Origin: Hydrolagus colliei
Taxonomy: Eukaryota
DNA: 64,000 bases
Reading direction: 5' to 3'
NCBI GenBank assembly: GCA_035084275.1
Contig: CM068745.1
Location: 1,674,001-1,738,000, forward strand
How positions within the stretch are numbered: the first letter of the stretch is position 1; each line of letters begins with the position of its first letter. This document shows, piece by piece, positions 29,441-63,048 of the stretch. A program made the position numbers and the translations under genes. The notes under the pieces were generated by a model. That model ran no database searches and had not been told where the DNA came from. It saw nothing but the letters and a program-made list of their open reading frames with translations.

Positions 29441-29900
29441 GTCAAGATCCTCGTCCTCACTTTCAAGGCCATTCACGGCCTTGCCCCCCCCGCCCATCTC
29501 TCTGACCTACTGTCTCCCTACCAGCCTGTGCCCACACCCTCCGTTCAGCAGCCTCAGGCCTGCTCCGTGTCCACCGCCCTAACCCCCCAACCATCGGGGG
29601 CCGGGCTTTCAGCCTCTCTGCTCCCACACTGTGGGACTCCATCCCACAGCCCCTCGCCCTCGCTTCCTCCCTTTCCTCCTTCAAGGCCGGTCTCAAGACC
29701 TTCCTCTTCGACCGCGCCTTTGGCTTCCCCACTAACTCTTCCCCCTCTCCCACTCTCCTTCCCCTTACCCCTACCACGAGCCCCCCCCCCCCTCCCCACC
29801 ACCCACCAGCTTGGGTCCAGATCTGACTGTTCAGCGCTTTGGGACGTCCTCTAAACGTGAAAGGCGCTGTATAAATGTAATTTTGTTGTTGTTGTTGTTG
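29441..29900 (+). mobile_element. L2 LINE 3' end
   Basis: KILVLTFKAIHGLAP...; ttcaaggccggtctcaagaccttcctcttcgaccgcgcc; (ttg)n tail. Confidence 0.85.
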
Positions 29901-32778: not shown

Positions 32779-34406
32779 GTAAATAAATACTGTAATATTG
32801 ACTCTGATTCCCATCTCGAGCTCTTATCTTTCAGTGCCTTGCGATGATATCCTCCCGACGTGAAAGGCGCTGTACAAATGTAATTGTTGTTATTGATGTT
32901 GATGTCATCCACACTTTGGATTTGGGTCATTTGTTGGTTCACACTGTCCAGCCATTGGTTGCCAAGCCTCAAGCCAGTGTTCCTGCTCTGGAATTCTCTC
33001 TCAAAATCCTTTGCCTTGTGCCTTCTCCTCCTTACCTTCAAAACGCTTTGAAAAGCATATCTCTTTAATTCTCCTTTAGGGCAACCCCTTCAAACCTTCC
33101 TCCTTTCTTGCCTAATCTTTGATCCCCAGGATCTTTGTGAAGCGCTTCTCAATCCTATGTGAAGGATTTGAACATGTTGTTGGTGTCAGCAACCAGGATC
33201 TCTGTGTACTGTAGCTTGATTTGGGAACTACAGTAACATCTCAATAATCTGACATTCCGAAACCCGGCAACTCCCTAAATATACTACACACAGTATCAGA
33301 TTTTGAAGGAGGCCAGGGAGGGGGGTGGAGGGACTGCGGAGGGACTGCGGGCTGGAGTTGCAGAGGTTGGAGGCAGAGTGGCTGAAGCCTCATCCACCGA
33401 TGGCAAACTGAAATCCGGAAGGTGCATGGGCCCAACCGTGCCGGTCATCAAGGTTTTACTGTAAACCACACCAACCTCCATATATACAGTAACAGCCCAT
33501 TTATCCGACACCCTCAGGACCTGGCCAATGCCTGGATATTCGTCCGAAAACGCCCCCCTCCCCCCAAAAAGTAAATTAATACATTATTCCGGATAAATTC
33601 CGGTTAATCGAATGCGGATGTCTGACCATGGAACATAAAGCAAATATGGCCTGGTGTTTTAGAACAAGTTTGAACAAGCAGTCTTGTCACGTTTTAAAAT
33701 GTTAATTTATTGGGTTGGATTTTCGGCAACTTGCCGCTCGAATATCCAGCATATTTGATTAACCGGCACCGAGCAGGTCTCGAGGGTGCCGGGTAACAAA
33801 GGTTTTACTGTAATTTGCAAAATAGCCCAGTATCCTGTTTGCCATGTTTATTAGTGCATCACACTGTTTTGATATGTTGAGCAATAAGCCAAATACTGTA
33901 CCACACTTCAGTTTCTTTCATCACCCCGTAGGAAATAGGAACATTTCTTCACACAGACAATCTAATCAAGAAGGACTATGGAACATAAAGCAAATATGGC
34001 CTGGTGTTTTACAACAAGTTTAAACAATGTAATCTGCTGGGGACAAAACTTTGAACTTTAATCCTCATTGAGAGAGTGCTAACATATACAATTTCAAAAG
34101 AGTTCAAAACCAAAAAAAACTTTACTACTGTATAATAATATAATAATAATAATCCTTGCATTTGATATAACACCTCATCACATCAATGAGACATCTTAAA
34201 GCGCTTCATAAGATATTCTGTAAAATGGATTAACTATATTTTGTGGACGACACGTGGCAGCCAGTTGCAAGTCTCACCAACAGTATTGGAATGAGTGACC
34301 AATTTTATTTGAGGGATTGTATATGGAATGGCTTAAATACACCTATAGTGATTTGTTTTAATTAACCTAATACAAACAATGGTTCCGTAGCTTTGTTTTT
34401 TTTACA

Positions 34407-34466
<60 letters not shown>

Positions 34467-37400
34467 CAGTATACCAGATTTCCTCTGCCAAAATTAAAAG
34501 TTCACAACCATGCTTTTTTTTTTAAAGTCCCTAAAAATGTCTTCATTTGATTAGTTTTTTTCTCTTGTGTTAGATGTATATCCCAGAGGTGGCAGAGAGG
34601 TGGAAATGCCGCCAATTCCTGTACAGTGCTGGCATTGCTCGGCACTCCGTGTGCTTTCATGGGCTCACTGGCACCCGGACGAGTTGCAGAGTGAGTTTAA
34701 AGTATAATTGTTATTGCCATATCACATCCCCTCACCCTGCCCGTGGCCGTGTTGCTCAACACCTCTGGACGTGTTGCTCATGCCTGTGTCTGGGAATTTT
34801 GCTCGGTGACTGAAGTTTGTTGTTTTCGTTGGCTTGTTGAAAATGATATTTTATTGATAACTTCAATATCAAAGCTTGTGCGAGAGCCTAATATGTACAT
34901 AACATTAGGACACAATAGGGTGAGTATTGTGCCCGAAAAATGCTCCAAGAGATAAACAGAAGGTTTGATAATACATCCTGAGAAACTGAGTTCATTAGAT
35001 CAGAGATTGACCTACTAATAGTTGCACTTTTATTCTGACTGTCCTGATTTTACTGTTTTGCTGAGTTAAGGTTCCATTAGGATTGGTTTTCTGAGGCTCT
35101 TGAAGCCAAGCATCAATGTAGAAAGATTGAAACAAAAACAGAAGTTGCTGGGAAAACTCAGCAGGTCAGGCAGCATCCATGGAGAAAGGAAAGTGAGTCA
35201 ACGTTTCGGGTCCACGACCCTTCATCAGAACTCAACTTAATGTAGAAAGATTGACTTCTTCCCCCCATCCACAAATCCAATATTTCAATCCAGATCAGGC
35301 TTCTTAGAAGAGTTCCCCCTCCCACTAATTTCCATACCCTCCCTCAATCTCTCAACATAGAAAGAGTCTGGAAGGAACCAATGTTGATGGGAGTCCATCT
35401 GTAAAGCAGTTCATTCTTCAGCTGCATTATATTGAAAGATGAGAACTAGTGAAAAGGTTCCTTCCCATGTGTGCCAATGACTTACACTTCCATCTGTGCC
35501 ACTGGACCCCTGAAACCAGTGTTGTCCTCCCGGCCATTTCATCATCGTGTGCCGTGGTCATTGTTTTCAAATCTATTCACTCCTTGGCACCTCCCCATCT
35601 CTCTGACCTACTCACTTCCCAATCCACCACCCGACTCCTCCGCCTGACTGGCACCAGCCGTCTGCTTGTCCCTCACGCCCTCCTCTCCACCATTGGAGCT
35701 TGTGTATTCAGCCACTAGGCCCTAAACCTCTGGAACACTCACTCATTCAATCCCCCCCACCTCCACTGGCTCGGAGTCAAGCACTCTGAGACCCTGCGTG
35801 GAGGGCGCTATATATGAGCAAGTTGTATGGTGCCCTTTACTTAACACTTAACAAAATGGATTTATTAATTATCTAGTAAACAACCATTTCATTTTCATTG
35901 CTCGTTAATGATCTGATAGAGGGCATCCATCATTCCCTCTGTAAACATGGCTCTCATAATATGACTGTGTTTAAACATGTTTTACACTCAGCATATAAGA
36001 GGCCCATTGTCTCCAATCTTGGATATCTGAAATAAACCCAAACCTGAAATGCACATGGCAACTCACCCAAACAGGAGAAATACAGATCAATCAGGTTAAA
36101 CCATAGTCATCCATTTTAATACTTGTAATACTGGAGAAAAGGGCACTCAACAAAACAAATTCTATCTTCTCCTCCTAAGAGTAAAAGGTTTGGCATTAAG
36201 GAGTCTTGCATATATAAAATACTTACATTAACAAAGAATGTATGGATTACAGCACAGAAATAGGACTCTCAGCTCAACCAGTCTCTGCTGGTGTCAATGT
36301 TTTCAAACCAGCCTCCACCCATTCCTTACTCCCTACCTTTCTACTCCCCAAACCCTAATGGGAAGGTCTAGCTTCCTTGGAAACGCATTATTTTATATTT
36401 CAAAAGTAATGTGTGTACAAACAGTGAAATATTGCAAAAGTGTAGATTTCAATAAATAATAAAAATGATTCAATGATGCTTTGTTTCCAATGAAGGCATG
36501 TCACCTGGATGGGCTGAATGGCCTGCTTCTTCATCTTAATTTATTTTGCATGAAATATTGGCAAGTATATCTGTGGCTTCCTTTCCTAATTTTAGATTGA
36601 CTTCATTGTATTTATTATCTTGTTTGCTATCTTTTCATTACTTTTTGTTTGTTTCTTCCACCCTCTTTCTCTCTGTCTCTCTCAGATTTCATTCTTCATT
36701 CTCGTTTACTACCCCCTCACCCTCCTCTATGCATTCAGTTTGGGAACATTCTCTTCCAAAATAACAGTAGCTCAAGCAGATGTCCATAGTCTGTACAGCA
36801 AGAGAATTGAAGGATAATATTTTGGTTGGAGCAAAGAGTATGGTGACTAGACGCAGCCCAGTTGAAAGCCAAAGGGAAAGGAGATATAATGGAGATGAAA
36901 AACTGGGCTACTGAACTGAGGTAAACTCTGACAATGAGACAGACTTTCTCCAACATAATTGTGCAATGCACTATTTCTAATTTTTTAAACTTTCTATTGT
37001 GAACAGAGAGGTGGGCATTAACACCGACAAGAAAATTACACTCGTATAGCGCCTTTCACACACATAATAAATAGAACAAAGGCTATTGAACAGTGGTTAC
37101 TGTTCAGCAACAGCCAACAGTTACAGATGGCTCCTTAAGGGAACCTGGACATCTATATATACACGTATATGCACACACGCACACACGTAATTAAAATTTT
37201 CAGTCGTTGTTGGTGAGGATGGGAGAGTCACCAAGGTAAGGATGTCCTATTTTGGTTACATGAGACAAAGTAGTGGAGAGCTTGCTCACACCATACTGTC
37301 TGGAGACGAGGGGAGTGAATGAATGCACCTGGGAATTGCAGTTTCACAGCATCAATAAAATGGGCTAAGCCACAGGAATGATTTTGACCTAAAGATTTCA

Positions 37401-40400
37401 ACCCCTCAAACAAATAACTGGAGCAAATTGAGTGGGAATTGACCATTCTTGAATCCTTAATGGAGTTGGGTTAATGTATGAACGACTGCTCTTGTTGTTA
37501 CAGTTTGAAAATAGAAGACATTTCGGGGCAGAAAGATGGGTGGGGAGCAGTCTTCCAGTTACAGATATACCTAGCTAACCACATGTTTTCATATCCAAAC
37601 TCAGCTCCAAATATGCTTCCTACATGCTCTTCCCTGCACCCTCACCATGTTGAAGTGAAAACTCTTTGCAAACTCTTTCAACCCTATTCTATTCTCAAGA
37701 TTGGATCTCCTTACTTCCTTTGTCTTCTCTCCCTCCTACAATCTACCCATGTTTAAGTCTCAAGTCCTCGGTAGGAAGCAGCACACAGATACTTCTTGAT
37801 TTCTCTCATCCTCTCTCCTACTCTGCTGAACCTCGTGTTAACCTGTCCTGTAGCTCTTGTTATCTCCATTTACTAATTTGAAGAACGGATTAATTTACGC
37901 AGGTATCCACTTATGACATATAGAACCTAAGATTATTTTTACTGTTCAGTGAGCATTTTCAAAGATATTGGGTCACTTTGTGAAAAAAGATGAAGAATGT
38001 TGATGCTGGAAAAAGGAAACATTTTTCCATCTGCTCTGCTCGGTTGGGTGAAAAAAAAGTGGTATTCCCAGCCTGGATATACTCTTATTTCACCGCTTAA
38101 ATCTCAGATTGAAACTCTTCAGTCCTTTGCTCTTTAATTTTTACTTCCGATGTCAAGTTGATCCCCAGTATGACCAGTATTCACCCTGCACACTGAATGC
38201 GAACAGGGTTTTTCCGTACAGAGGATATTGCAGCCAAATATCACACCCTACATCAGGGACCTCCTAACCCCTTACCAACCTGCCTGCCCCCTCCCTCCGC
38301 TCAGCAGGCTCCATCCTGCTCCATGACCCCCGACCCACCCGCCCCACCATTGACGTGAGATCCTTCAGCCGCTCTGTCCCCAACCTCTGAAACTCCATCC
38401 CACAGTCCCTCTGCCTCGCCCCCTCCCTGGCCTCCTTCAAGTCCCGCCACAAGACCCTCCTCTTCGACGGTCCCATTGGCCACTCCAAATCCCTCCCTTT
38501 CCCTCCACTCTCCCCGTCCCCAGCTCGGGTGTGAAACATTGACTGTCCAGCGCCTTGGAACGTCCTCCTGACATGAAAGGCGCTATACAAGTGTCATTTT
38601 GTTGTTGTTGAATTGTATCCTTGATCCTGACATTAACAGAAGTATATTCCAATGGGATAAGGAGGGATGGCTGTCAAACAATGCAATGCTTCACTAACAA
38701 TAGGAACCATGTCAAACACCATGATATGATACTAGTGGTGCTGACAATATCAAAACAGGAGCAATTGAGGTTTCAGTTAAGCGGTCAAAAGATCAGTGAT
38801 TGATGTGAATACTTCTCATTTGGCCTGTACTGGTTCAGGATGATGTGTGTTTTAAAGTGGAGGAGGGGGTAAGGGGGGGAGTCCATGTTTGCTAATAAGC
38901 ACAGAAATAATTTGAATGCGCGTCAGGTGCAGAACTAACAATACCACATAAGGCTCAACTCAATTTGGTGCAGTACAAAGAGACAGAAGATCGATCAGGA
39001 GAGGGCAAAGAGGAGGGAACCATTCTGAAGTTCAAATGGCCCATTGCCAACCCCTTCTATAAACACTCACCACACCAGAGCTGCAACATGCTGATCAGAA
39101 ATTTAAAAAAGGCTATTAAAATATTGAGATTTTCTTGAGAACAAACCATTCCAGTCTGGGAACCAAGATCCACTGGGAGAAAGAAAATAATTCAAATTTG
39201 TCCCCCTCAAGCCCGGGACTGAAAGTTGGCCCCTTTGATATATTGTAAAGTTCCTGTGCGCAGGTTTGTGAAACAGATCAGGTCATCCCTTCCATTTAAA
39301 GAGACAAATGAACTGCGATCGTGGCACTTGATGAAAGACTAATTTTGGGGGAATGAATTTCCTGCTTGAAGCACTTCCTGCAGACCCTTACAGATGTGGC
39401 AAAAAAGCATTCGCTCTCTCCTTCTGGAAACCTTTCCTCAGGACAGAAGGAGCTCTCAACAACAACTTCCTGTTGTAAAAGTGAAATGCCAGACACAGAC
39501 ATTGCTTCATTGCTTATTCTGGCAAGTGGCCTTTGCAGCTCATTGATTTAAATTCAGTTTCCCATTTAATGAAAATCCTAACATTTTTACCTTATTTGTC
39601 TGGAAGTCCGTCCTCTTCCAGCTTTTATTGCATTTAAATCCACATTATTGTGGCTGCACTTCCTGTAGGTCTAGTCTGGGAATGTGGGATTCTCCACGTG
39701 TGTCATTCATGTTTAATCAATTACTTTTATTTATCCTTCCTCCAACACCCACCCAACCCGTTGTCACCTTCACCACCCAATCTTCCACTGAAGAGAACCG
39801 TCATAGTACCTCTCACACCATCTCCACTTCATCACCACTCACAGCTTCTCCTCTAGCCTCTGCACCATCACATGTGGTGTTCCTCAGGGCTCTGTCCTTG
39901 GTCCCGTCATCTTTTGTATCTACATGCTTTCTCTTGGTGACATCATCTGTAGACATGAGGTCAACTTCCACATTTATGCGAATGACACCCAACTCTATCT
40001 CTCTGCCTCCAACCTCGAACACTGCTGTCCCCCAGAGAATAAATTTCAAATTCCCCATCTTTGCCTTGAAGGCGCTCCATGGCCTGGCTCCTTGCTATTT
40101 CTGTGACATGCTGACCCCATACCCACCTGTCCACTACCTCCGCTCAGCAGGCTGTGGCCTGCTTCACATTCCCCACCCTGCCCATCAGTGGTTGGGTCTT
40201 CAGGCTGTCTGCCCCCTACCCTCTAGAACTCAATCCCACATTCCCATTGCCTCTCTCCCTCCATTGCCTCACGTCAAGGTGTGTCTCAAATCCCTCATCT
40301 TTGATTTTGTCTTCGGCCACCCTCCATCCTCCCCGATCCCGATCTTCAGCTCAAGTCCAAATCCCTGATTGTCTAGTGCCTTAAGATGTCCTTCCAATAT

Positions 40401-55860: not shown

Positions 55861-56091
55861 GACGTCACACAAACCCACAAGAATCATGTTTCACATCATT
55901 CCGCAGAAAGTAAGTTTCCCCCCGAAGGTGCAAATGCTTCAGGTGACTCCCCCCGGACTGAAGGGGGGATCGCCCGAAACTGGCCAAGTCAATTGGACAT
56001 CAATCTCATCACAATCTCATCAATTATAACCAGATTGAGCCGTGGGCCCCCCGCGCTCCCACTCCAGGGAGAGCCGGGGACACCTGTGACT

Positions 56092-56496
56092 CACTGACAC
56101 ACCATCGGGGGGACATTAACACTGACACACCATCGGGGGGACATTAACACTGACACACCATCGGGGGGACATTAACACTGACACACCATCGGGGGGACAT
56201 TAACACTGACACACCATCGGAGGGACATTAACACTGACACACCATCGGGGGGACATTAACACTGACACACCATCGGGGGGACATTAACACTGACACACCA
56301 TCGGAGGGACATTAACACTGACACACCATCGGGGGGACATTAACACTGACACACCATCGGGGGGACATTAACACTGACACACCATCGGAGGGACATTAAC
56401 ACTGACACACCATCGGGGGGACATTAACACTGACACACCATCGGGGGGACATTAACACTGACACACCATCGGGGGGACATTAACACTGACACCATC
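56092..56496. repeat. 28-bp minisatellite cactgacacaccatcggggggacattaa, ~14 copies
   Basis: Exact 28-bp periodicity. Confidence 0.95.
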
Positions 56497-58804: not shown

Positions 58805-59545
58805 TATTTTGCGTGTACTGTACAGTGGTTTGCGGGTACTGTACAGTGTTTTGCGTGTACTGTACAGTGGTTTGCGTGTACTGTACAGTGGTTTGCGTGT
58901 ACTGTACAGTGGTTTGCGGGTACTGTACAGTGTTTTGCGTGTACTGTACAGTGGTTTGCGTGTACTGTACAGTGGTTTGCGTGTACTGTACAGTGGTTTG
59001 CGTGTACAGAACCGTGGTTTGCGTGTACCGTACAGTGTTTTGCGTGTAACGTACAGTGTTTTACGTGTACCGTACAGTGGTTTGCGTGTACCGTACAGTG
59101 TTTTGCGTGTACTGTACAGTGGTTTGCGTGTACTGTACAGTGTTTTGCGTGTACTGTACAGTGTTTGCGTGTACTGTACAGTGGTTTGCGTGTACTGTAC
59201 AGTGTTTTGCGTGTACTGTACAGTGTTTTGCGTGTACTGTACAGTGTTTGCGTGTACTGAACAGTGTTTTGCGTGTACTGTACAGTGGTTTGCGTGTACT
59301 GTACAGTGTTTTGCGTGTACTGTACAGTGTTTTGCGTGTACTGTACAGTGTTTTGCGTGTACTGTACAGTGTTTTGCATGTACTGTACAGTGGTTTGCGT
59401 GTACTGTACAGTGGTTTGCGTGTACTGTACATTGTTTTGCGTGTACTGTACAGTGTTTTGCGTGTACTGTACAGTGTTTTGCGTGTACTGTACAGTGTTT
59501 TGCGTGTACTGTACAGTGGTTTACGTGTACTGAACAGTGGTTTAG
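58805..59545. repeat. 21-bp minisatellite gtgtactgtacagtg(g/t)tttgc, ~35 copies
   Basis: Direct reading; each unit has the palindrome ACTGTACAGT. Confidence 0.95.
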
Positions 59546-60142: not shown

Positions 60143-63048
60143 GTTTGATTTATTTTATTGTCTTGCAGATAAAAACACCCAAGAGTAAACTCTATACTAT
60201 ACTTGAAGGGATCATCGTTCAAGGCTGTTTTGCGACTCACAGTTATTTGTGGAGTGTTCAATGACAATGTTTTGTCTAAATTTAGCCATCAAATTATTTG
60301 TTTGCACCAATATAATTATCTACACTTGACTATTATACTAAATAGTTCATTGTAAATATTTGTGCGTAACACAAACATCTAGGGCTCAATTACTCACTTA
60401 AGAGCAGTTCCATTGGTGACCCATAGTTATTCTGCATTATAAGTACACTATAGTATTTGGCCATAACAACAATTTAAATTCACGTCTTCGAGCGCTTTAA
60501 ATTAGAAATGAGGTGAATGCTGGCTCTCTGTGTAAGTAAATGAGGCAGCAGATTTGCTCTAACAAGGTACATCAAACAGCAATGAGATGGGTATCTGAAC
60601 CATTAGAATTTGGGGGGTAATTTGGGATTAAGTGGGAATATAAAACAGGATTGTTAGGAGAAAACCAACACATTTCTTTGAAATGGAGGGGCATACATAG
60701 GGTTTAATTTCCATCGGAATCACAAGACAGATGGACTAAAATGCATAACAGGTTCAAAGAAATGGTCTGGAAATAAATAATAAACTGGTATCTGATGTAG
60801 AATGTTGTAATGTTGGAAAACAATTAGGTAGTTAATGGGCACCAGATCATAAAACACTGAGTCTATTGAAGATTACATATGTTTGATGTGATATTAACTG
60901 TCCTATAATTTCATGCTTCGTCCCGAACAGGGGATTTACGTCAGCAACTCTGCAGTTCTCTGGCATGACGTTTGTCTCCAAAAACGTAAATAAAGTTTGG
61001 GTCAAATTCACCTCCTTTATAAAGTATGCTAGCTCAAACAGATTATTCATAGTATAACATTAACATGCCTCAAGAGATCACTATAACTCAAATGGACTTT
61101 TTCTATGCTGCAAAGTCCTATGGTTCTATTCCCATAGAGTATACATAGAACAGATGTACTTTGAAAGCAGTAAATGTGATATTAATTAACTCCTTTCAGA
61201 AAGGAGATGGATAAATACCTGGGTAATAATGGGATTGATAGTTTTAAGGGAAAATATAGAGAGAATGATCAAGAATACTCGGACTAGTGGGAGCATGAAA
61301 GTGTTCCCTGTGGAGACAAGTGCTCAAAATGGAACAACAACAAAATTACATTTCTGTAGCGCCTTTCACGTCAGGAGGAAGTCCCAAGGCGGTGAACAGT
61401 CAAAGGGTCAGGACCCGAGCATGGGGTGGGGGCAGGGTTGGGATGAGGGAGGGCAGAAAAATTGCTGACGTTGAGCTGTACAGAGTTGTCTCTCATCCAG
61501 GACTTGATGTCTGTCAGGAAACCAGTAGTCAAGGAATTGAGGCAGTGAGGTAGAGGCAGTGAGGTAGAGTTGGGTGTCGTCCGCATGCATGTGGAAATTT
61601 ACCCCATGTCTGCGGACAATGCAACCAATCATGTAGGGGTTGAATGATTTTGTAACATTAAACTCAGATCCAAGGGTTTGTCTATTTGGGGTCTTATGAA
61701 GCTATTTTGCATGTACTTAGTCAATCCCTGAAGTTTACAGCAACGACAACATTTTTAGAGCACCTTTCATGTTGCGAGGACGTCCCAAGGCACAGTGAAG
61801 GGTCAGGACCCAAGCATGTGGGGGGTTGGGATGAGGGAGAGTCTGGTGGGGTAGAGGACACGAGATGCAGAGTTTGGGAAGATCTGCAGCTTGTGAAGGG
61901 AAGAGTTTGGGAGGCCGACGTGGAGGCAGTTTCCTTAGTCAAGTTTAGTAGATTCTGCACATAACGTAGAAAAGTTATTTCATCCTGCGCCAGAGTGAAG
62001 AATAGAACCATGTAAATGTTTTCAATGTATTTTGACACTTCATCTCCCATCCACTGTATTTATCAGAAGTCAGACGAGGAATGTGGGGCACCTTCCCCTT
62101 ACGAATTGGGAAGCTCTGACTCCGAAAAAGACAGTTTAAAAGACTTCATTGTGGAAGATGATGATGAGGAGGAGGAGGAGAGTGGAGCGGAAACACAGTT
62201 TGGAGAAAACCACACAAGTACACTGAAGCACCCTCAACCATCAAAGTCCATACTGGCAAAATATCTACCAAACTGTAAGAAAGAAAGAATTGCTACAACC
62301 TTTACTGTTGGACAACAAAATACATTTCCTTGATTGAATATTTCTTGATTTACGCCTTAAATGTTTTTGTTTTTATGCGGGGAGGGGGTGCTTCTTGACA
62401 GCGATCCATTTCCAGCCTGTAGGAACCTTTCCATTGGCTTCCCATCCGCCAGAGGATAAAATTCAAGATCCTCATCCTCGATTTCAAGCCCATTCATGGC
62501 CCTGCCCTTTCCTACCTCCCCAACCTGCTGACTCTCAACTAACCTGCCCGCCCGCTCCGTTCAGTGGGCTCGGTTTGCTCCATGTTTCCAGTCCGACCCA
62601 CCCTACCATCAGTGGACAGGGTTTCAGCTCCTCTGCCCCCACACTGGAACCCCATCCCACAGTCCCTTTGCCTTGCTTCCTCGCTTGCCTCCTTCAAGGC
62701 CGGTCTCAAGACCCTCCTTTTCGACCGTACCTTCAGCTGCCCCCTCAGCTCTCTGCCACCTCTCGTCACTACCCTGCCCCTGCCCCCTGCCTCGGTCCCC
62801 ACCCCTGACTGTTCTCCCGATGTGAAAGGCCGTCTACAAATGTAATTTTGTTGTTGTCTGTCACAGTGTGGCTGCCACTGGCTCGATGGTACCAAACTGG
62901 AAAGCAAATGTGTCAACTTGTAATGGATTAAACCTTTTACTGTTTGTTTCTACAGTGTACAATAACAGTCCCTATAACCACTTCAAAAGGGTCGTTAAAG
63001 GTTTGCTGATTAATGCACTTGATGTCAATTTTCTGAAATCACTGTATG
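59579..63048 (+). CDS. CCDC82: Coiled-coil domain-containing protein 82, 5' part: join(59579-60142,62067-62274,62956-63048), continues beyond the window
   Basis: N-terminal SRIDRRRTK, acidic low-complexity region, DFIVEDDDEEE and HFKRVVKGLLINALDVNFLKSLY recall human CCDC82 (SRVDWRRTK...DDFVVQDEE...[23 protein letters not shown]). GT-AG introns with phases 0, 1, 1 are consistent. Confidence 0.9.
61333..61960 (-). mobile_element. Two tandem internally deleted L2 fragments in a CCDC82 intron
   Basis: Tails at ~61333 and ~61740; HADDTQLY...DIKSWM on the minus strand. Confidence 0.75.
62067..62274 (+). CDS. CCDC82: CCDC82 second coding exon (KSDEECGAP...DFIVEDDDEEEEES...AKYLPN)
   Basis: tatcag| acceptor (CAGAAG tandem), T|gtaaga donor, 208 nt; ORF 62016-62333. 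Confidence 0.87.
62420..62858 (+). mobile_element. L2 LINE 3' end in a CCDC82 intron
   Basis: HWLP..QRIKFKILILDFK; FKAGLKTLLFDRTF; (ttg)n tail. Confidence 0.85.
62956..63048 (+). CDS. CCDC82: CCDC82 third coding exon (YNNSPYNHFKRVVKGLLINALDVNFLKSLY)
   Basis: ttctacag| acceptor, G|gtaagt donor, 93 nt; conserved CCDC82 motif. Confidence 0.92.

Follow-up and report, generated by a model that had tools for sequence, protein, structure and literature searches.

What is a hammerhead ribozyme motif doing in a ketohexokinase (KHK) gene, within an insert of 108 bp that is enclosed by an exact 16-bp direct repeat? Is this a mobile mini-element in its own right, made of the ribozyme plus a tail of ~60 nt, as a sequence-only reading of this DNA had proposed? 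Or, is it a fragment of something larger? The analysis of the window, by which is meant the whole 64-kb stretch of DNA, answers in favor of the fragment. With near certainty, the insert is a terminal piece of an endonuclease-positive Penelope-like retroelement (PLE), equipped with a reverse transcriptase (RT), a Neptune-type linker and a GIY-YIG domain; it is thus part of a longer autonomous element, the very outcome that the sequence-only reading had named as speaking against its proposal. As for how such a short piece was written, the reading preferred here, with a probability of about 0.62, is that the insert represents the tail-less segment +1 to +102 of the element, likely laid down by the element's own enzyme as a run-off copy of the 5′ end of its RNA.

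The repeat around the insert had been taken for a target-site duplication, and this is borne out: both copies are exact and lie where they had been placed (Table 1). Among 80 family copies whose start coincides with the hammerhead edge, 45 have duplications of at least 9 bp, and the same holds for only 2 of 80 controls with shifted flanks (counts that exclude copies extending far upstream), so that chance does not explain the 16-bp repeat. Of the 108 enclosed bases, 102 belong to the Penelope-like terminal segment and the other 6 are filler at the junction. The last three bases of the left duplication match the element's own continuation, and this points to microhomology at the priming end. 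In the family numbering used throughout, the A at 35232 of the minus strand is +1, and the window copy covers +1 to +102.

The exon upstream of the insert matches human ketohexokinase with an E value of 3.7e-11, and its limits were taken from contigs of a second organism. Further KHK-like motifs occur on the plus strand at about 41690, 49573, 51181, 51796 and 51883, the one at ~41690 being the next after the exon. The motif in the insert is therefore intronic and antisense to KHK, as had been claimed; the label “intron 2” follows the human exon numbering. The surroundings hold other repeats as well. A CA microsatellite lies upstream of the KHK exon (34387-34451), a second, unrelated high-copy repeat fragment with high contig depth starts ~300 bp from the insert (35552-35700), and tandem arrays with periods of ~28 and ~21 bp occupy about 56090-56450 and 59230-59520. 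Many matches of 50-450 bp to the flank of one family locus, L036, were found at 38244-38607, 29442-29891, 62430-62719 and other places; this is another abundant dispersed repeat and not a Penelope ORF.

Table 1. The insert, its hammerhead motif and the host context (positions in the window)
Feature	Positions	Strand	Remarks
KHK exon 5′ of the insert (host context)	34572..34691	+	human ketohexokinase match; contigs of a second organism
Left target-site duplication	35115..35130	.	16 bp; 35128-35130 also equal element +103 to +105
Family segment +1 to +102, tail-less form of the Penelope-like terminal repeat	35131..35232	-	+1 is the 5′ end hot spot
Remainder of the terminal segment, as far as the 3′ end without a tail	35131..35195	-	predicted tail partner of +54 to +63 absent here
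Stem I, 3′ strand GACU	35196..35199	-	AACU in the older subfamily
GAAA core and loop-less palindromic stem III AACGUU	35200..35207	-	predicted cleavage between 35200 and 35199
Stem II, 5 bp, 3-nt loop	35208..35220	-	older subfamily: compensatory A-U at the stem base
Core CUGAUGA and extra unpaired A, typical of PLE minimal hammerheads	35221..35228	-	sequence; PMC4209133
Stem I, 5′ strand AGUU	35229..35232	-	in upstream-extended copies, A lies within initiator-like CCAGTTC, with TTAAAAA at -29
Junction filler, 6 nt, non-family	35233..35238	-	at least 4 letters common to 0/80 copies
Right target-site duplication	35239..35254	.	exact, 16 bp

How solid is the ribozyme itself? The parts that had been reported are all in place on the minus strand: CUGAUGA at 35228-35222, the extra A at 35221, stem II at 35220-35208, GAAAC at 35207-35203, a GUU that ends at 35200 and the palindrome AACGUU at 35205-35200. 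The assignment to the Penelope type of minimal type I hammerhead, in which stem III is a palindrome, also stands, and the CUGANGA, GAAA and NUH elements and the extra nucleotide all fit the features given for these motifs (PMC4209133). A longer stem I had been drawn (AAG-U-UGAGUU/GACUCA-CUU), and this part has to be given up: its outer portion is the junction filler, and, since these first 6 nt are private to the window copy, the family stem I is of 4 bp (AGUU/GACU). In this one copy the filler lengthens the stem by chance, as an accident of the junction, and the predicted pair probability of stem I is 0.72-1.0 with it and 0.14-0.19 without. The insert had further been said to begin exactly at the outer edge of the fold; family copies do tend to start there, but the insert's own first 6 nt are filler.

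Two general tests were negative. The Rfam hammerhead models, a check suggested by the sequence-only reading, gave no match at E up to 10 over 4.5 kb and 171 bp, likely because the motif has no helix III. Compared with shuffles, the folding energy was not significant either for the whole insert (z of 0.17) or for the motif (z of -1.37). The identification of the putative ribozyme rests on its core sequence and on covariation between subfamilies, not on folding energy.

This covariation, whose lack had been named as an argument against the ribozyme, is present among the genomic copies. In the older subfamily the G-C pair at the base of stem II becomes A-U, together with a different loop; the A-U occurs in 40 of 40 rows of this subfamily, and T is found at that place in 10 of 58 others, as counted by hand on 100 of the 201 rows with two odd rows left out. 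The wobble pair of stem I becomes U-A in all 6 older-subfamily loci checked. On 16 hand-picked rows, 91.7% of the cells were paired and the covariation score of 0.231 was reached by 1 of 500 shuffles. The signal for helices I and II is modest, as it reflects about one event, and the compensatory changes make it likely that the master elements kept the fold.

The inserted copies were inspected for the same property. At CpG sites, 43 of 171 cells changed in the core and 42 of 172 outside it, and a search for purifying selection on the non-CpG core positions gave no clear signal (15 changes in 386, compared with 42 in 719 outside). All 13 bases of core and palindrome are kept in only 6 of 42 sampled copies, and the core of the window copy is intact. 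Judged from these counts, the ribozyme decays in inserted copies, its catalytic positions at the CpG rate. For the monomer, the prediction is a misfold in which the core pairs into stem III (pair probability of 0.71-0.80), and the predicted two-molecule fold of the motif is a duplex that pairs the core rather than an active dimer, a result that is uninformative on cleavage.

A different structure is predicted further downstream. In L046, L072, L291, L301 and other loci (+54 to +120), +54 to +63 pairs with the tail in a helix of 8-10 bp, in which a G-U pair changes to A-U in older subfamilies, and the tail-less 3′ end sits in a U-rich loop inside it. This predicted helix is a candidate enzyme-binding structure and, given the absence of the tail, tail-less copies are unable to form it.

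To which element does the insert belong? The search of the genome itself yielded 1,059 candidates, 40 of which were scored. Six of the 30 loci fetched continue 5′ into a common segment, and three (L005, L016 and L019) run on through a 3′ UTR to the end of a GIY-YIG-like ORF. The match of this ORF end to Pfam GIY-YIG (E of 0.0055) is below the cut-off, as are the Pfam scores of decayed copies, and its homolog P0019 passes GIY-YIG. The loci found with the 5′ extension as the query (L032-L042) carry DKG and RT motifs, with an E of 1e-4 for RVT_1. The CX2-5CxxC linker between RT and endonuclease, a feature of the Neptune clade, is present as CX4CxxC in L037 and L040; such a motif is described in Neptune, and Nematis is also given one (PMC8557442). 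The layout is best read in L041, where an inverted truncated copy is followed by the pLTR with the hammerhead, the tail, the 5′ UTR and the ORF, the tail continuing into the 5′ UTR. The nearest named proteins are those of bamboo shark, zebra shark and devil ray, pointing to a cartilaginous fish as the probable host. Linkage to GIY-YIG and RT Penelope ORFs, which the sequence-only reading had proposed to look for, is thus found, as copies continue into ORFs with these motifs. The ORF-bearing copies are all broken, and the active parent is inferred from these, as no intact ORF was found among them. One locus has a large internal deletion that joins the N-terminal ORF region to the endonuclease end (L019:210-1502).

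The family is abundant. The core-motif pattern has 2,092 matches in the genome, and a sample of 40 10-kb stretches, drawn from five large contigs, contained 20 pieces, at 73-93% identity to the reference copy; a rough extrapolation from these 400 kb leads to ~50,000 pieces per genome. In sequencing run X6, 24,203 contigs fell on a 1.2-kb stretch, with the depth concentrated on the element and the neighboring repeat. The insertion had been called recently mobilized, and this is correct for the copy and not for the family. The window copy has a single difference from the column majority in 102 nt, at a neutral CpG position, which makes it probably one of the younger copies. The family itself is old: it comprises several subfamilies, at 73-93% identity, and the element is also present, with identical ends, in a second organism. 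Among the joints listed for the contigs none corresponds to an empty site, and the contigs of the second organism do not reach the unique flanks of the insert in the intron. A few loci form pairs whose insertion and flank are identical or almost so (L061/L062, L053/L141, L246/L247), which suggests local duplication after insertion.

The ends of the copies carry most of the argument. In 70 loci anchored at +55 to +96, that is, downstream of the cleavage site, and including both arms of a few insertions, 40 of the 5′ ends lie at -2 to +6, 15 further upstream, 12 at +7 to +29, 2 at +30 to +37 and 1 at +53. The cleavage site itself shows no pile-up, the ends at +30 to +37 being only those 2 of 70. 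Among 145 distinct copies (of 160), starts were counted at -2 (6), -1 (17), +1 (19), +2 (17), +3 (6), +4 (8) and +5 (6), with none at -3 to -6. Anchored samples favor the least decayed subfamily; in the sample taken at fixed positions over 400 kb, the interval from -2 to +2 contains the starts of 8 of the 20 pieces. The contigs of run X6, possibly the assembly's own sample, have their top loose ends at +1, +2, +103 and +136.

At the other side, the 3′ ends are bimodal, near +102 and +136, and the difference is a tail of ~34 nt on one form. An inverted arm within 700 nt accompanies 63 of the 145 copies. There are 59 inverted pairs in total, and in 52 of the 55 that could be classified one arm is tailed and the other tail-less. 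Counted with comparable exact patterns and a gap of up to 60 nt, head-to-head sites number 74 and head-to-tail sites 1, a complex insertion; by this count, the tandem dimers expected of a retrozyme-like element are almost absent. At the 5′ junction of L015, L028, L080, L085, L097, L243 and others, the element's initial 10-25 nt recur two or three times, which suggests template jumps at the RNA end.

What lies at +1? Where upstream sequence is present, copies show TTAAAAA at -29 and, at +1, an initiator-like word; in terms of the Pol II promoter consensus, the former would be a TATA-like box with one mismatch and the latter the initiator. In L072 and other long copies, the segment from -45 to +2 also reads as a 3′ splice site, with a branch-like word, a pyrimidine run and CAG. 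An excess of G at -1 was not seen (14 of 80 copies), so that there is no cap signature.

Taken together, the ends suggest that +1 is probably the 5′ end of the RNA and that internal priming close to it probably gave rise to the short copies, as run-off products. The mechanism would be as follows. Transcription from a Pol II promoter in the upstream part of the pseudo-LTR would begin with the first base of hammerhead stem I. Nicks in the target, staggered by ~12-17 bp, would come from the GIY-YIG domain, and reverse transcription would begin internally, at +136 or at +102, here aided by the 3-nt microhomology. The enzyme would then run off the end of the RNA after ~100-135 nt. Use of both nicks would yield two arms joined head-to-head, one tailed and one tail-less; in the window copy, a single tail-less arm would have been fixed, joined through the 6-nt filler. 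The hammerhead of this copy would have come with the parent sequence, and the prediction is that it stays silent unless a partner or the protein of the element is available. The copy has neither the upstream promoter-like segment nor the tail, and it is therefore most likely a dead end.

Precedents exist for several of these steps. In an Anolis PLE, reverse transcription starts at two internal sites that flank the tail, on both strands and from uncleaved RNA, and priming requires downstream ORF sequence (PMC11167929). Transcription of Penelope starts within the upstream pLTR (PMC2377424). A more ambitious version of the mechanism, which we offer tentatively and hold a little short of probable, is that a complex of two enzymes would prime both nicks from the two tail boundaries, one per strand, and run off at the start of the RNA, that is, at the first base of the hammerhead. 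Strong-stop-like products would then have been left by the tens of thousands, mapping the start and both priming sites, and full-length or pseudo-LTR copies would need a template jump at that point.

Some observations sit uneasily with a run-off at +1. The 15 of 70 copies that pass +1, together with the few upstream bases carried by some head-to-head junctions, imply that many templates reach beyond this position. Of the 18 copies with the 5′ UTR, 2 run upstream and 11 break off before +1; the other 5 start at +1 to +5 (two of which look like one duplicated insertion) and speak for the run-off. The lack of a cap signature counts against it. The promoter reading, for its part, has to face the likeness of +1 to a splice acceptor and the mismatch in the TATA-like word.

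The main rival of the run-off is an ordinary 5′ truncation, which is unlikely but has to be taken seriously; on this view, too, the insert would be a dead Penelope fragment. Here the copy would be primed in the 3′ pLTR on a longer template, and the enzyme would stall or drop off at the 5′ edge of stem I because of structure or a bound protein. The copies that pass +1 are what such a process would leave, PLE insertions are generally 5′-truncated (PMC8557442; PMC8969392), and +1 is exactly the last pair of stem I. A structural stall, however, should be expected at the 3′ side of the helix, which the RT meets first, and stem I without the filler is weak. In addition, the upstream boundary is sharp, with the empty interval at -3 to -6, and the promoter-like words occur at the right spacing.

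A second alternative, improbable in our judgment, is the one put forward by the sequence-only reading: an independent non-autonomous retrozyme-like family, whose master would be the ribozyme plus ~65 nt, mobilized in trans and cleaving as dimers. It has some appeal, as the short copies far outnumber those with the 5′ UTR (327 and 344 exact, against 18 at one mismatch) and are flanked by duplications, retrozymes are thought to derive from pLTRs (bioRxiv 10.64898/2026.07.22.740005), and truncated copies that bear a promoter could give short RNAs that are then copied in trans. Against this, an independent family should have a lineage of its own, and 80 short and 33 long copies had no diagnostic position apart from +2, at the edge, where the difference is an edge or selection effect. 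The single head-to-tail site, the near-absence of ends at the cleavage site and a CpG decay as fast in the core as outside it all point the same way, and a unit of 102 or 136 nt is smaller than the tandem units of 150-450 bp described for retrozymes (PMC7229834). The assignment to non-LTR retrozymes was rejected on the orientation of the copies and on the lack of diagnostic positions between short and long ones.

Still less probable is that +1 was set by splicing, the upstream segment being an intron that ends at CAG, as in Drosophila Penelope. The branch-like word, the pyrimidine run and the CAG do precede the core, and in D. virilis the end of the Penelope intron maps to the 5′ end of helix I (PMC4209133). 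Most ends, however, retain the A or G of the AG, as the counts from -1 to +3 indicate; no common exon sequence was found upstream of +1 in 80 copies, where the commonest 6-mer occurs twice, and no spliced joint appears among the joints listed for the contigs.

Finally, co-option of the window copy as a self-cleaving element acting on antisense KHK transcripts can be dismissed: the intact core, rare among the sampled copies, and the filler that strengthens stem I would favor it, but a young copy should have its core intact in any case, misfolding is predicted for the monomer, single minimal hammerheads gave no cleavage (PMC4209133) and the Anolis hammerhead needed protein (PMC11167929). With no partner hammerhead or second family copy in the 64 kb and no upstream promoter-like segment, the action on antisense KHK RNA that had been suggested for the insert is unsupported.

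What do these data add? Solo and opposite-strand minimal hammerheads of truncated PLEs, inverted pLTRs and the one-sided tail are already published (PMC4209133, PMC3846280, PMC8557442), while an accumulation of 5′ ends at helix I was not found described in the main texts of the open-access literature. Taken by itself, the locus is unremarkable, an intronic member of a very large set of dead Penelope end pieces, with no sign of a host function. The family, instead, bears on an open question, namely the origin of the tandem and inverted repeats of PLEs and the role of the hammerhead. Copy ends that lie off the cleavage site argue that the ribozyme cut does not define the template, in agreement with the Anolis element in vitro, and they predict an RNA start and one priming site per strand. 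A word of caution follows for cartilaginous fish genomes, in which short hammerhead inserts flanked by duplications are not to be called retrozymes.

How does this family compare with known systems? LTR retroelements make a minus-strand strong-stop DNA, a short cDNA that extends from an internal start to the 5′ end of the RNA. The product proposed here would resemble it in this respect, and would differ in being target-primed and left in the genome, with no tRNA primer and no integrase. Non-LTR retrozymes share with this family a non-coding nature, a type I hammerhead, a relation to pLTRs and duplications longer than 4 bp, but are described as head-to-tail tandems with circular RNA and mostly canonical hammerheads, whereas the copies here are solo or head-to-head and carry the minimal motif (PMC7229834; bioRxiv 10.64898/2026.07.22.740005).

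The closest relatives are found among the PLEs. The minimal hammerheads of PLE pLTRs described by Cervera and de la Peña in 2014 (PMC4209133) have, like those here, a helix I of 4 bp, no helix III, an extra nucleotide before helix II and the palindrome at 15.2-16.2; they are reported in Neptune elements of fishes, and thousands of solo motifs per genome, with opposite-strand pairs, were read as truncated PLEs. The main text of that paper gives no map of copy ends, and in the present family it is the first base of helix I, rather than the cleavage site, at which 5′ ends accumulate. Insertions of EN+ PLEs comprise a pLTR, an adjacent inverted 5′-truncated copy and an optional tail of 30-40 bp (PMC3846280, PMC8557442), features matched here by the inverted arms, the duplications, the ~34-nt tail on one end and the CX2-5CxxC linker. 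Unlike the insertions described for them, those here mostly contain only the end module of 102-136 nt, and the one-tail rule has been counted (52 of 55).

The Poseidon element PAc of Anolis, studied in vitro by Frangieh et al. in 2024 (PMC11167929), belongs to a different clade; its ORF starts inside the hammerhead, while here a 5′ UTR follows the tail, and its priming needs no homology, while here a microhomology of 3 nt is present. Even so, PAc has what the reading preferred here would require: two internal RT starts flank the tail, both strands are extended, the RNA is uncleaved and no reads end at the cleavage site.
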